Shown here piece by piece: positions 30,701-36,700 of a stretch of 64,000 bases of DNA (positions within the stretch are counted from its first letter, which is position 1; every line of letters starts with the position of its first letter). The position numbers are program-made. The stretch lies in contig OY970067.1 in NCBI GenBank assembly GCA_963705305.1, positions 2,464,001 through 2,528,000 on the forward strand, read 5' to 3'. The DNA comes from an uncultured Methylomirabilota bacterium (GTDB lineage Bacteria > Methylomirabilota > Methylomirabilia > Methylomirabilales > 2-02-FULL-66-22).

Positions 30701-33700
30701 TCGTGAGGATATCCCGGATGACCGGGGCCTGCTTTGCCGGTGAGAGATAGACAGCGACGGTATCCACGAGATCCGGGATGGCCGTCAGAGACACATATCC
30801 TTTCAGGCCCAGGATCTCCTTGCCGGACCTGGACACGGGGATCGGGGAGAACCCGGCGGCCAGCAGCCGCTGCAGTGCCCGGTGCGAGTACCGGTGGACC
30901 TTGTCGCTCGCGCCGACGACGGCCACGTTTCTTGCAGGATCCATTGCGGGCAAACCCTCCTGCAGGGCCGCACCACGCGGCCGCGATTCTCCCGCAGCAT
31001 GCCGCCGAATCAGGGAGCGGCCATGAGTATACGTCCTCAGGCGGGCGGACTCAATCGCCACGGCTTTCCCCGGGGCGACGTTGCCCAAAGAAGCAAATGG
31101 GCTTGGGGGCGGAGGCGGGAGCGCGCGGGGCCGGCGGACGGAATAATGTCAATAAAGTCGCAACGTCCCCTATGCTTGCACTGCCCGTTCTACGCGCCGT
31201 GTGGCGAAGACGGCCGCCGCGGGAGCCAGCGGTTGACGCGGCGCGCGTAGCTCTCGTAGGCGGGGCCGAATTGGCGGCGCAGCCGGGGCTCCTCGTACAG
31301 TGTCACGAACAGGTGCACGAGACTCCAGGCGGCGGCGGCGAGGAGCAGGATGGCGGGAGACCGCAGCCACAGACCGCCGCCGGCCAGGAGGGTGAGGCCG
31401 CCGACGTACATGGGATTGCGCGTCCAGCGGTAGGGCCCTTCCGTGACGAACGCGCGGGGGGGATCGAAGGGCGCGGGCGTTCCATGACCGCGCGCCACGA
31501 AGAGGCAGCCGCACCAGAGCGCCAGCGCGCCGCCCGCCAATGCCACGACGGCGCCGACGGGTTGGAGCCAAGCGGGCAGCGGCCCCCCCAACCGCGGGTC
31601 CCAGCCGCGCACCGCGAGGGCGAGCCAGCCCCACAGGAGCGCAAAGCAGCCCATGTACAAGGCAGCCCGGAGGGCCAAGCGCAGCCCGGTCATCTTTCAT
31701 CCTGCCAGGGCAACTCCTGGTCGAGGAGCTCGGTGCGCTTGAGGACTGAGTCACCCATGAAGTTGAAGTGCGCAAGTGTCGTGCCCGGGAACGCGAACGA
31801 GGACTTCAGCTCTGCTCCGCGCCCGAACGTGCAGTTGTCAGCGATCCAGTTGCCGCCGCGAAGATAGGCGCCCGCCGCGACGAAGCAGCTGGCGCCAAGG
31901 ATGAGCGCCCCCTTGATGACCGCCCCGGGTTCCACGACGGCCGTGCGATGGATCGCGATTTCATCCGAGATGCCAAACTCCGCCGTGGGCGCGGATGCGA
32001 GCAGCTCTCTCACGACAAAGGCGGATTGTGCCGCCAGCGCCCACGGCGTCAGTGCAGCGAACTTCGCGAGCGATGACGCCGCGAAGCCCGACACATGGCT
32101 TGTGACCGTTACTTGTGGGTGCATACGTTGACTTGGGGGCTAACGATCCGAATCAGCGGCGGCCGCAGGCTGGCCGCTGGACTCGGAGGTTAGCCGCCGA
32201 TGATTTCATTCAGCCCTTCGATGACCTGGTCGATCGCTTCTGGTGGCACGCGGGCCATTCGCTTTCCGAGACGTTCCACAGACAGCGTACGAATCTGACT
32301 GATCTTGATACATGACCGTTTCGGCAAACCTGGAGTGCTCAACTCGAGTGTGAGGGGGAAGCCTGCCTTTTGCGGTTGGCTGGTCAGGGCCACGGCGATG
32401 ACAACACCCGATCTCTCGTTGAAGACATCTTGACTGAGCACCAGGACAGGTCGTTGCCCTGATTGCTCGTGCCCTCGGCTAGGGTCCAAGTTGGCCCAGT
32501 AAACCTCACCCCTCAGTATTCTGGCCATTCGCCCACGTCCTGTGAGATGCCTTCTTCGGCGAGGGCCTTCTCGTACTTCGGATCGAGCTTGGCGCATTCA
32601 CGGGCAAGACGACTCCGGTTGACTCTGGACAGTTTCTCTTGAACTGCCTCTTGGATTGCCTTGCTCCGATTGGGGAAGACTTTGGACGAAACAAGTTGAT
32701 CGAGCTTCCCCAAGAGCTCTTCTTCGATCGTGATTGCAATCTTCGCTGTGCCCATCGGGTTTCGCCTCCGGTATTACGATATATCATACCATTGGTCTTT
32801 TCAAGTCTCTTCTTCCGGCTAACAGGGATTATACAGTCTGTCCAAAGCTGCAGCGGGCCGCACGTAGATGTCCAGGTCCCCCGTGAACCGTGGAGCCTCG
32901 TGGAAGGCCAGCACATAGCCGTCCACGATCATGTACTCGACGCTATGCGCGCTGAATAACTCGAGCGGTTCTCTGAAGTCTGGCTGTACTTCCATGGTAT
33001 TGCCTTCGCAAGTAGTCCACGACGGCAACCCGTTCGGCTGAGGGCCGGCTCAGCCGGTAGGCAAGGTCTTCTCGCCGGGTGTCCGAGCCGAGACGCCGCT
33101 TGCGGATGACTTTCCGTATCGTGGCTGATCTCGGTCGAGCCTCAGATGGCCGGACACGTTGCGTTTCTCCGGAATACGTAGCAGGGTGCTGAAAAACCCG
33201 CTTTCCTCCAGGCTGCTCAAAAAGGTCCAGATGTCCCTCGACATCGCTCGGGACCGTGAGCCTGTCGAACGGCAAGGCGGCGTCACCCATCCCTTGGGAT
33301 GGATACCCGCCGCGGGGTACCCACCGGAGGTGGGTCGGAGGCGTACTGACGGGTACGTCGCAGCGTCGCGGGAACGCGCGGGGTACCCGTCCGCAAGATG
33401 GGTCCCCGCAGATGGGCCTTTTTCAGCAGCCTGCTACAGCTTCCGCAGGATGCCCACCACCTTGCCGAGGATCTGAAAGTTCTTCTCGCCCGGACGGATC
33501 TCGATGGGGGGCATGCTGGGGTGCTCCGGCTGAAGGACGATCATGCCGGGCTTGAACTGGATGCGCTTGACGGTCGCCTCGTCGTTCACCAGGGCCACCA
33601 CCACGTCCCCGTTCTCGGCGGTGGACTGGCGGCGCACTAGGGCGTGGTCGCCAGGGAGGATGTGGGCCCCGATCATGCTCTCGCCCTGGACCTTCAGGAT

Positions 33701-36700
33701 GAAGGCGTCGTCCCCATTCACCCAGTCGCGCGAGACCGCCAGGGTTCCCTCGATGTTCTGTTCGGACGTTCAGGGGGTCGCCGGCGGCCACCCGGCCCAG
33801 GATGGGCAGTTCACGGAACGGCGCGGAATCCTTCCGGGCCGGCGCTGCCGAGAGAGCCGCCGCCGGCTCGAGGAGCTGGAGAGAGCGCGACTTGGTGGCG
33901 GTGCGGCGAAGGTAGCCCTTGCGCTCCAGGGCCTTGAGGTGGTCGAAGACGCTGCGGGGCACGAAGCCGAAGTGTGCACCGATCTCGCGGACGGTGGGGG
34001 GATATCCCGCCTGAGTCATGAACCGGCGGATGAAATCCAGGATCTCGCGCTGTCGGGCCGTGAGCTGTGGTCGCATCGTGCCTTCCTCGATCTCCGTGCT
34101 CTCTTACCATACGCATGTATGGTAAGTCAAGGACAATGTGGGGGGCGGCCGGGAGATCCCGGGCGCTGGCGGTCCGGACACCGACAGCGGGGGAGGAGCA
34201 GAAAGGCCGTCGTAGTGGGCCGGCAGTTCGAATTAGGATTGAAACGTTTCAATTTTCTCTTGACATGGCCGGGCGGCACGCCCTATGTTCTCGCCGTCTC
34301 GCTGGACGTTCGGGGACAATCGCGCCGCCGCGCGGCCCCGTCCCGCACGCCCGAGGCGGCGTCGTGAACGTCCGGTTTCCCTGAATCCTCTCCAACCGCC
34401 GGGAGCTTCCCGATGGTGACGATCAAGGACGTGGCGCGCACCGCCGGCGTTTCCCTGGGGACGGCGTCGCAGGCCTTGCGCGGCAGTGCCAGCGTGCGGG
34501 AGGCGACCCGCCGCCGCGTGCTGGCCGCCGCCGCCCGCCTGCGCTACCGGCCCAGCGCCCTGGCCCGCGGGCTGGTCACCCATCGCACCCACACCATCGG
34601 CCTCCTCATCTCCGACATCGGCAACCCCTTCTTCATCCGGGCGGTCCGGGCGGTGGAAGACGTGGCCAACGAAAACGGCTACAACATCATCCTGTGCAAC
34701 ACCGACGAGGATCCCCGCAAGGAGATGCAGTACCTCGGGGTGCTGGTGGAGAAGCGTGTGGACGGCATCATCCTGGCCACCACGGCGGAGAGCCGCCAGG
34801 TGGTACGGGACGTGCGCCGAGAGCGCATCCCGCTGGTGCTGTTCGATCGCGCCTGGCCCGGGATCGCAGCGGATACTGTCACGGTGGACGGGATGCTGGG
34901 CGGGCGCCTGGCCACGGAGCACCTGCTAGGCCTCGGCCACCGCCGCATTGCCATCATTCACGGCCCCAGCAAGCGATCCACCGGCAGCGAGCGGCTGCTG
35001 GGCTACCTGGCGGCCCTGGCGGATGCGGGAATCCGCGCGGCAACCGAGCTGATCCGTGAAGGGGACTTCAAGCAGGACAGCGGTCACCGGCTGGCGCACG
35101 AACTGTTAGGGATCGCCCCGCGCCCCACGGCGCTGTTCTGCACCAACAATCTCATGACGGTCGGGGCGCTGCATGCCTTGCGCGAGCTGGGGCTCCGGAT
35201 CCCGCGGGACCTCTCCCTGGTGGGCTACGACGATATGGAGTGGTGGACGCTGACCCAGCCTCCCCTCACCACGGTGGGGCAGCCGGTCTACGCGCTGGGC
35301 CGCGAGGCCATGCGCCTGCTCTTGGAGCGGATCGGCTCGCGGACGGGCCGCCGGCCACGCCATGTCGTGCTGAAGCCGGAGCTGATCGCACGGGAGTCCT
35401 GCGGGCCCCCGCCACAGGCCCGGGAGGGCCCCGGTCCGAGCTCGAGACGGAAGGCGGGCCGTGTCGGAGGAATCGGGAAGGAAAGGGTACCGTGACAGAC
35501 CTCCCGTCGCGGCCCCCGCCGGCCGGAGAAACTCCGCCGGAGGCGATCAGCGGGGGGGCGCTGTCGGTTGGAGTGTCGACCCGGGTGCGAACAGGGGGAC
35601 GTGGAGTGCGCTGAGGCGGACAGGCGCTCCTGGGGTGGGGGAGACATGGAAGGCAAAGGAACAAGGAGGAGGTCGTCATGAAGACCTGGCTGAGTGCGTT
35701 GGCGGGCATCGGTGTGATGTGCCTTTTCTCGGCGACGGTCGACGCGGCCACCGTCCTCCGGTGGGGCGACGTCCAAGCGCAGGATCACGTGGCATACAGG
35801 ATGATCGAGCGGGCCGCCAAGAAGGTCGGCGAGGCCACCCAAGGGCGAGTGCAGATCCAGGGCTATCCGAACAGCCAGCTCGGCAGCTCCAAGGACATGA
35901 TCGAGGCGGTGTCGCTGGGGACCCAGGACATGGTGACCGAAGGGGCGGCGAATATCGGCCAGTTCGTGTCGGCGATCTCAGTCCTCGAGGCGCCGTACGT
36001 CTGGCGGGACGCGGCGCATCTCGCCAAGGTCATGGCCGGTCCCATCGGGCAGGAGCTCAACACGCTTCTCATCCAACAGCGCGGCATGCGGATCGTCGGC
36101 ACGACCTACTACGGGGTACGGCAGCTTACCACCACCAACAAGCCCGTCCGGACCGCGGCCGACATGAAGGATTTCAAGCTGCGGGTTCCCGAGAACGACG
36201 TCTTTCTGGCCATGGCCCGGGCCTGGGGAGCCAAGCCGACCCCGATGACGTTCGGCGAGCTGTACCTGGCGCTGCGGCAGAACGTGGTGGACGGCCAGGA
36301 GAATCCGCTCCCCACCATCGAGTCAGGCAAATTCTTCGAGGTACAGAAGTACCTGGTGCTCACCAGCCATATCCTGACTCCGCGATTGGTGCTGGTCAAC
36401 GAGAAGGTCTGGCAGAGCATCTCGGCCGCCGATCGGCAGATCGTCAGCAGCGCCGTGGCCGAGGCGATTGCCTGGAACAACCAGGAAACCCTCGAGGCCG
36501 AGCGGGTGCTGGTGGACAAATTCAAGAAGGCGGGGATGGAGGTAATCCAGCCGGACGTTCGAATCGTTCCGGAAACCCGTGCTCGACACTCTCCCCAAGA
36601 TGTTCGAGGCGAAGTGGGGGAAGGGCCTCTACGAGCGGATCGTGGAGACAAAATAAATGACAGGGGCGAGTGCGGCACATCCGGCTCACGGGGCGGCAGC

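Follow-up and report, generated by a model that had tools for sequence, protein, structure and literature searches.

A candidate LexA operator in the lexA promoter spacer and a small predicted SOS regulon in a Methylomirabilia genus

The palindrome CCAWAC-N4-GTWTGG, the consensus in a genus of uncultured Methylomirabilota, lies between the −35 and −10 elements of lexA and is very probably the operator of the LexA repressor, to judge from sequence comparison. The window analyzed here, a 64,000-nt stretch of one genome of the genus, carries it within TACCATAC-GCAT-GTATGGTA at positions 34105 to 34124, 29 nt ahead of the lexA ATG. This is the sole match within the window at up to three mismatches, where a mean of 0.07 would be expected by chance. 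The targets are most likely lexA itself, a 96-amino-acid (aa) orphan, the PolB2 mutasome genes (iRadA-PPB2 and polB2), an SplB-like radical-SAM gene, and some integron integrases.

RESULTS

The palindrome and the lexA promoter

The genome-wide survey's note had described a 20-bp palindrome, TACCAWAC-N4-GTWTGGTA, between the lexA −35 and −10. The site and its position stand: the box occupies the −35/−10 spacer in every one of the 12 lexA genes identified in the genus (Table 1). The conserved palindrome is shorter, however, and the 20-bp motif is unsupported because its TA flanks are one-sided promoter sequence, the outer TA being the start of the −10 hexamer. The 20 relatives have 65 distinct core sites (counted after one duplicate row was removed); TA flanks the core on both sides in 3, on one side in 57, and on neither in 5, and the dinucleotide to its left is variable across all 11 lexA promoters of relatives (AA, CA, GG, or GA). 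The putative lexA −10, TAAGAG, was missed by a strict consensus promoter scan. At 51 of 54 oriented box sites the −10 lacks its final T, compared with 104/292 genome-wide, which leaves the assignment of the promoter less clean than is usual.

Table 1. Features of the lexA locus, in window positions
Feature	Position	Strand	Remarks
Predicted LexA operator core CCATAC-GCAT-GTATGG	34107..34122	.	Same core ahead of 12/12 genus lexA genes found
Putative lexA promoter −35 hexamer TTGACT	34125..34130	-	TTGAC here in 12/12 genus lexA promoters
Putative lexA promoter −10 hexamer TAAGAG	34101..34106	-	18-nt spacer; without final T
Shine-Dalgarno-like GAGGAAGG	34081..34088	-	Read from sequence
lexA	33434..34076	-	Frameshifted in the assembly by an additional base near 33769
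Turn and recognition helix FVPRSVFDHL	33936..33965	-	Lacks one residue relative to E. coli RSPNAAEEHL
Ala-Gly self-cleavage site (VAAG)	33780..33785	-	Alignment to E. coli LexA
Catalytic Ser (GESM)	33677..33679	-	Alignment to E. coli LexA
Catalytic Lys (TVKR)	33566..33568	-	Alignment to E. coli LexA

The two halves of lexA match PF01726 (N-terminal winged HTH; E = 5.7e-24) and PF00717 (C-terminal S24; E = 1.4e-25), the Ala-Gly site and the Ser/Lys dyad are present, and the palindrome in the gene's own promoter is common to damage-tolerance genes. The frameshift reported earlier is indeed in the assembly, at about 33769, but the extra base is absent from one short-read contig; the gene is intact in 11 relatives, which are 71 to 79% identical. 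The best solved match to the protein, PDB 3k2z (E = 3.8e-38), has the same one-residue-shorter turn (RITPRGALLH in 3k2z). This structure is from Thermotoga maritima, and the entry is not known to include DNA; the box of its LexA was not found in the literature searched. No attC-like pattern or repeat family was found downstream of lexA.

Distribution of the box

The source genome holds 2, 5, and 7 sites at 0, ≤1, and ≤2 mismatches, counts that none of 100 composition-matched palindromes attained, and when spacer lengths were compared there, the 4-nt spacer alone yielded sites at ≤1 mismatch. In the 20 relatives, the 16-bp core occurs 65 times versus 4 for the reversed control, although these counts overstate independence because the relatives are kin. 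The core is present in all 20 relatives, which replaces an earlier figure of 17 of 20 genus genomes. Sixty of the 65 sites have the promoter layout, and 5 exact sites are without it; all but 4 of the 60 precede lexA, the orphan, iRadA, polB, the radical-SAM gene, imuA, or intI, the exceptions being at a contig end or ahead of an unrelated gene. The core is rare outside the clade (19/174 published genomes outside families f1 and f3, mostly as single sites).

Recognition helix and box across the class

Across 87 lexA loci, the box changes with the helix, four helix types each having a box of their own; the box patterns were read from the same loci in which they were then counted. The FVPRS(V/I)FDH helix accompanies a CYAWAC box at 18/18 loci (whole-clade form, CYAWAC-N4-GTWTRG), with an exact match to the E. 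coli-type box CTGT-N8-ACAG at none of them. Relatives with the T(P/A)RAAFDH helix use CTCAAC-N4-GTTGA(G/C), in agreement with the genome-wide survey's note that a different helix goes with a different box: CTCAAC was present at 30 of 38 loci (≤1 mismatch) and CYAWAC at 0, and 8/38 were without their own box. The RGVQYH and RFGAFRH helices have their own boxes at 13/14 and 8/8 loci, respectively. The variant boxes recur ahead of iRadA, imuA, or intI within their own clades, evidence that does not depend on how the patterns were derived. Each box clade was supported in a LexA tree built from 55 of 89 rows, a result confined to the box clades and not extending to deep branches. Two further boxes in the same order had escaped the earlier survey. 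A Fibrobacter-like box occurs here only ahead of a separate LexA paralogue with the helix STNGVRAH (genome G044).

Nine of the 20 box-bearing relatives yielded no lexA, more than genome completeness predicts, and SOS-like regulons under non-LexA regulators are described for Bacteroidetes (PMC8565304). Both points would suit another transcription factor (e.g., a WYL-type activator or a phage-type repressor) that binds the palindrome and has lexA merely as one target. We regard this as improbable, as the box shifts with the LexA helix in four clades, the two stray lexA copies that encode E. coli-like helices have CTGT-N8-ACAG as their box, and a site that fills the spacer suits a repressor. Moreover, eight of the nine missing lexA genes coincide with assembly breaks or missing neighbors: four relatives have a contig end or a gap of Ns at the syntenic place, and in another four the neighboring genes were also not found; the ninth relative (G016, 95% complete) is explained by neither.

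Members of the predicted regulon

As first reported, the regulon appears small, and the boxes ahead of polB2 (contig position 5485096), the RadA-like gene (5447706), and a small gene (2033677) were confirmed. A regulon centered on PolB2, as had been proposed, is unsupported because the 96-aa orphan is a more constant target, in fact the most constant, and because ImuA-ImuB replaces PolB2 in 4/21 genomes, four relatives in which imuA-imuB lies under the same box. Two other proposed members are doubtful. Cotranscription of the DEAD helicase with the small gene is unsupported, the gap between them being 53 to 1,043 nt and some genomes having a separate promoter-like element for the helicase. The dnaN site, rejected as weak, has one mismatch and falls 484 nt upstream within an oriC-like region rich in DnaA boxes, with a like site in only 2 of 18 relatives. 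The site at 5002329, just upstream of the sole csoR gene, is CsoR-type, as the survey had cautioned of such sites, and was rejected as a LexA target. Sites 5181244, 3693198 (ahead of a ribonucleotide reductase-like gene), and 3235111, with lower PWM scores and no clear −35, were also rejected.

The mutasome genes resemble those of the published bacterial PolB2 mutasome, iRadA-PPB2-PolB2 (PMC11791011), in having a RadA-like protein with a broken P-loop, a PPB2 starting with MGRT, and a PolB with IVDS in place of DTDS, and in the nearness of lexA and DUF72 in relatives. An iRadA profile search matched archaeal RadA (E = 1.6e-8), and the P-loop region reads GPxFVLDLGT, an inactivated ATPase site. 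PPB2 was recognized by its N-terminal MGRT and its place after iRadA, an assignment by motif only because no Pfam or NCBIfam model matched. The best solved matches of PolB are archaeal PolB (E = 2.4e-52), with IVDS aligned to GDTDS and the first Asp of DxD replaced. Whereas the published mutasome is a contiguous operon, iRadA-PPB2 and polB2 of the source genome keep that order and share a strand but lie 37 kb from each other, each with a boxed promoter of its own; the two are nearer each other in G047.

The 96-aa orphan is genus-specific, ends in Ala-Ala, and is boxed in 19/19 copies. It had no Pfam or NCBIfam match and no Foldseek match at E ≤ 0.001. When it was compared by sequence and fold with the SOS effectors SulA, YneA, DinI, and YnzC, the best fold Z score was 6.6, and YnzC (Z = 6.0; rmsd, 2.5; 47 aligned) was tied among unrelated helical hairpins. 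Homology with a 95-aa Rokubacteria-type protein was not detected (hhalign probability, 0.3), and fold and Atlas searches with both proteins gave nothing usable, which shows neither novelty nor absence.

The earlier observation that recA and the uvr genes have no box was borne out. In the source genome, recA, uvrA, uvrB, and dinB have no site at ≤2 mismatches within 3 kb upstream, and no recA box at ≤1 mismatch was found at 21 loci searched up to 1.5 kb upstream (less than 800 nt at 3 of them). An unboxed recA in 21/21 genomes would fit a LexA that represses a regulon not opened by RecA after damage; alternatively, an operator of 18 to 20 bp with wing contacts to the flanks would fit the preference for A just left of the core (30/54 oriented sites), the constant T just right of it, and the lexA and polB sites of the source genome, which are full 20-bp palindromes. 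Such a departure from the 16-bp, RecA-relieved operator seems quite unlikely given that the outermost left T is present in only 4/54 oriented sites, that Ala-Gly, Ser, and Lys are intact, and that recA itself is present in 21/21 genomes.

The clade's own box is found at 8 of 21 intI promoters, in a distinct layout in which the right arm of the box, TATGGT, is the −10 itself, a layout that the genome-wide survey's note did not record. A LexA box overlapping the −10 of intI is known (PMC3108266, PMC8876359), and in a 2011 survey, only E. coli-type boxes were found at intI among 15 motifs (PMC3108266), in contrast to the clade's own box here. The intI layout, like the TG-n-TA (extended −10) that the right arm gives elsewhere, might suggest a promoter signature only, either an extended −10 or the mark of an alternative sigma factor, with no operator. 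This is the least probable reading, and very improbable in itself, since the left arm varies no more than the right and the dyad, always with a 4-nt spacer, follows the LexA helix and occurs in two different registers with respect to the −35.

DISCUSSION

We favor, with considerable confidence, a scheme in which a dimer of canonical LexA would bind CCAWAC-N4-GTWTGG within the spacer of sigma-70-type promoters, leaving RNA polymerase blocked by the filled −35/−10 spacer. Upon DNA damage, RecA filaments would induce LexA to cleave itself at Ala-Gly, and a small set of promoters would open, namely, those of lexA, the translesion mutasome genes iRadA-PPB2 and polB2 (imuA-imuB in four relatives), the SplB-like radical-SAM gene, some intI genes, and the orphan, with recA and the uvr genes outside the regulon. 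Both the repression and its relief by damage are predictions from sequence. The helical orphan is probably a short-lived ClpXP substrate through its C-terminal Ala-Ala, a putative degron, and any function would be equally conjectural.

The boxes of Myxococcus xanthus (CTRHAMRYBYGTTCAGS) and Fibrobacter succinogenes (TGCNC-N4-GTGCA) are, like the genus box, 16-bp dyads with a 4-nt spacer but differ in the right arm; the CTATAC variant found here fits the left arm of the Myxococcus consensus. The Gram-positive LexA helix reads SSSTVHGH, compared with VPRSVFDH in this genus. The Gram-positive (Cheo) box of Bacillus subtilis and Staphylococcus aureus, CGAAC-N4-GTTCG (PMC9578287), is likewise a 4-nt-spacer palindrome recognized by a canonical LexA. 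The genus box fails its consensus, with the inner AC-N4-GT alone in common and CCAW/WTGG in place of the CGA/TCG outer bases, and here recA is outside the regulon. Geobacter sulfurreducens and Bdellovibrio bacteriovorus also have small regulons, and these lack recA to go by titles in the reference lists of PMC3108266 and PMC8565304; their motifs, GGTT-N10-AACC and TTAC-N3-GTAA (PMC8565304), differ, and the mutasome here is PolB2 or ImuAB. The boxed targets belong to the usual core of SOS regulons (PMC8565304, PMC7739468, PMC11791011).

No account of this clade's LexA or box was found in the literature searched, a set short of some older motif papers, and the box is most likely previously undescribed. 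Some 17 LexA motifs have been recorded, and they are regarded as constant over whole phyla and classes, with change coming mainly through duplication and loss of genes (PMC8565304, PMC9578287). A broader reading, which we advance tentatively and consider rather doubtful, is that Methylomirabilia form a natural series of at least four LexA specificities on a shared AC-N4-GT frame, two of them about 2 contact residues apart between close homologues, each of which may have independently re-recruited a mutasome (PolB2 and ImuAB being interchangeable) and integron integrases. The orphan might then represent a novel family of SOS checkpoint proteins with a short life, acting to inhibit division or to modulate RecA or the mutasome; in Rokubacteria-type genomes its place might be taken by a 95-aa protein that is unrelated to it and ends in ALAA.

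If a single class has several motifs linked to defined residues of the helix, the residue-to-base code and the path by which motifs change could be tested directly. In the published account of the PolB2 mutasome, as far as its available text goes, lexA is given only as a neighbor and with no operator (PMC11791011); the box would add operator-level evidence for bacterial PolB2 as an SOS mutasome interchangeable with ImuAB. It would also extend LexA control of integron integrases past the E. coli-type box, and the most constant target of the predicted regulon would be an unstudied small protein.

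Predicted LexA operator in the lexA promoter

The genome-wide survey's note placed a palindrome between the −35 and −10 of lexA, and the 20-mer TACCATAC-GCAT-GTATGGTA does lie there, flanked on the minus strand by TTGACT and TAAGAG, 29 nt from the start of the downstream gene. It is the sole match in the window at up to 3 mismatches. Genome-wide it occurs 2, 5, and 7 times at 0, ≤1, and ≤2 mismatches, counts that none of 100 shuffled palindromes reached, and sites at ≤1 mismatch have a 4-nt spacer only. The downstream gene is in two halves, one matching the LexA DNA-binding domain and the other the S24 domain. 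The frameshift that the note reported is present in the assembly but is probably not a true lesion: a 302-nt short-read contig, elsewhere identical, has one base fewer at 33769 (one contig, depth 4.8), and the frame is open in 11 relatives, so the break is probably an assembly error. The Ala-Gly, Ser, and Lys of LexA are all intact, and a Candidatus Methylomirabilis sp. record holds a LexA that is 80% identical, which assigns the clade to Methylomirabilota.

Each of the 12 lexA genes identified in the genus carries TTGAC-N3-CCATAC-N4-GTATGG-TA, with two variable bases left of the core. The core, CCAWAC-N4-GTWTGG, is present in 21/21 genus genomes and occurs 65 times in the 20 relatives, versus 4 for the reversed pattern, although these genomes are kin and counts over them are not independent. 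The inner part of the proposed 20-bp palindrome therefore stands, whereas its outer TA symmetry does not (TA on both sides of 3 of the 65 sites, on one side of 57). At 54 sites, picked because they have TTG ahead of the core and TA behind it, the core takes up the 17- to 18-nt promoter spacer and the −10 starts with TA. This −10 has its final T at 3/54 sites, versus 188/292 TTGAC(A/T)-N17-TA sites in this genome, which may mean weak promoters or a different register. The core before lexA is very probably a LexA operator, as predicted from sequence.

Positions of features (window coordinates, or C1, the contig of this genome)
Feature	Position	Observation
20-mer	34105–34124	core at 34107–34122
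lexA	33434–34076	minus strand
MITE-like element	33167–33448	terminal inverted repeats, immediately past lexA stop; 189 BLAST pieces genome-wide, 39 of ≥150 nt
Palindrome TTGAAACGTTTCAA	34239–34252	presumably a LacI-type operator; outside the LexA regulon
Divergent lacI-family gene, TRAP transporter	34413–35495	preceded by TTGAAACGTTTCAA
DUF72 gene	28876–29820	same strand as lexA, 3.6 kb downstream
Short unrelated minus-strand genes	27945–33400	RHH-PemK toxin-antitoxin pair, broken nucleotidyltransferase-like gene, others
rpmH-dnaN interval	C1:1364710–1365870	DnaA-box-like repeats; dnaA absent there
One-mismatch site	C1:3693198	ribonucleotide reductase-like gene next; upstream boxes presumably NrdR-like, by consensus
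Toxin-antitoxin pair (Arc-like/PIN), integron-integrase C-terminal remnant	C1:5450347–5451476	directly past radical-SAM gene; opens 35-kb stretch to polB

The region downstream of lexA looks like an insertion hot spot; relatives G006, G007, and G018 have an integron integrase ~2 kb or less downstream of lexA. In G015 and G036 the DUF72 gene is ≤1.5 kb from lexA; DUF72 is described as enriched near polB2 (PMC11791011).

Predicted regulon membership

All 65 core sites from the 20 relatives were retrieved and sorted.

Regulon classes of the core sites
Class	Sites of 65	Remarks
lexA	11	
lexA-type promoter truncated by contig end	1	
lexA remnant ahead of an intI	1	
96-aa orphan	19	spread over 18 genomes; a further duplicate at contig edge
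iRadA	10	
polB	4	
Radical SAM alone	3	
imuA-imuB	4	
intI	3	along with one remnant
tnpB	1	L070 (G014), exact box, promoter layout
Aldo-keto reductase	1	L073 (G015), exact box, promoter layout; 3.8 kb upstream of polB, same strand
Without promoter layout	5	approximately chance level

This genome has four exact core sites, which a PWM built from relatives puts at the top: before lexA, the orphan, and, as the note had proposed for the PolB2 mutasome, iRadA-PPB2-radical SAM and polB. Its exclusion of recA also held, with no site at ≤1 mismatch in 21/21 genomes; dnaN and the DEAD helicase, which it had included, are doubtful members. This genome has its dnaA gene at 3.48 Mb and another dnaN (36% identity) at 3.28 Mb.

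The iRadA protein has a profile match to archaeal RadA, PPB2 begins with MGRT, and the polymerase, of the archaeal type, has IVDS, all matching the PolB2 mutasomes described in PMC11791011 (section 3.1). A box of its own precedes polB in 5/13 genomes (two loci lack upstream DNA); in this genome, as assembled, polB is also broken by two frame changes. Searches found PolB2 in 13/21 genomes and a close ImuB in 4/21, without overlap; the four may form one subclade, and therefore reflect one replacement.

For integron integrases of the genus, 30 of 40 matches were retrieved, giving 21 distinct loci with the start included, of which 8 show, no more than 450 nt away, a core with at most one mismatch. 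Four have the layout TTGACA-N17-TATGGT, the core's right arm being the −10, the same arrangement as in Vibrio and class 1 integrons. Boxes at intI were reportedly exclusively E. coli-type in a 2011 survey (PMC3108266). The intI of this genome is itself unboxed.

The orphan is present in 19/21 genus genomes, every copy boxed, and none turned up in the 175 published genomes searched in the rest of the class; 12 representatives were found in 1.84 billion proteins. Its model has three helices after a variable N-terminus (pLDDT 77), and a fold search gave no telling match. Terminal Ala-Ala, the key ClpXP signal (PMC7652416), ends 15/15 aligned copies versus 47/2147 predicted genes; the tmRNA tag is ANSELALAA. 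An unrelated 95-aa protein with an (A/P)LAA end is boxed in 4/39 published Rokubacteria-type genomes searched. We infer that both are short-lived SOS effectors; a checkpoint role would be a guess.

Recognition helix and LexA box within the class

We compared 87 lexA loci (all published order-level matches and 40 class-level matches spread across genera), deriving the box patterns from the very loci counted. Helix FVPRS(V/I)FDH goes with CYAWAC-N4-GTWTRG (18/18 loci), RGVQYH with TAKTAGTC-N4-RTATAMTA (13/14), RFGAFRH with GATAAC-N4-GTTATC (8/8), and, bearing out the note's pairing of another helix with another box, T(P/A)RAAFDH with CTCAAC-N4-GTTGAS (30/38 at ≤1 mismatch); there were no cross-matches. 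Two stray copies of LexA whose helices resemble that of E. coli have CTGT-N8-ACAG and are a positive control for the method. Family f4 has this genome's helix yet CTATAC at lexA; the helix therefore does not determine the second base of the box. Every clade of the LexA tree is supported, with the deep order unsettled.

The box patterns also recur, each in its own clade, ahead of iRadA-PPB2 in families f3 and f4, and of imuA-imuB, PPB2-polB, and intI in f7. In f8 the box is largely restricted to lexA, with a match, almost always a single site, in 31/39 published genomes; this Rokubacteria-type tally and the class-wide one of 175 leave out the unpublished genomes G031, G041, G082, G100, and G132, on which no conclusion here depends, and the label for f8, f10, and f11 comes from the note and one Atlas row. 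In G068 and G120, iRadA directly follows lexA.

Extra LexA paralogues (L121 and L122 in G044, L137 in G038) have CTGT-N8-ACAG (two) or TGCAC-N4-GTGCA (one); three types of LexA occur in G044. Single other boxes, each with its own helix, precede lexA at L140 (G069), L139 (G067), and L087: CTCATC-N4-GATGAG, GGTAAC-N4-GTTAGG, and GTATAC-N4-GTATAG.

No lexA was found in 9/20 relatives. In G001, G002, G003, and G012, its expected syntenic position coincides with a gap or the end of a contig; no intact neighboring gene was found at orthologue-level identity in G005, G009, G011, and G020; and neither a contig break nor a missing neighbor accounts for the absence in G016.

Relation to known LexA regulons

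To our knowledge, the core matches no known LexA motif. It has AC-N4-GT in common with the Gram-positive box, as given in Table 1 of PMC9578287. Small regulons without recA, as here, are described for Geobacter and Bdellovibrio in works cited by PMC3108266 and PMC8565304, and regulons whose motif changed are reported to converge on error-prone polymerases (PMC7739468, PMC8565304). A literature search, with most subscription journals outside its reach, found no report of a LexA operator for Methylomirabilota. LexA operators, small recA-less regulons, and polymerase convergence are already known; the novelty would be this particular LexA box, and the predicted operator would work like any other LexA operator.
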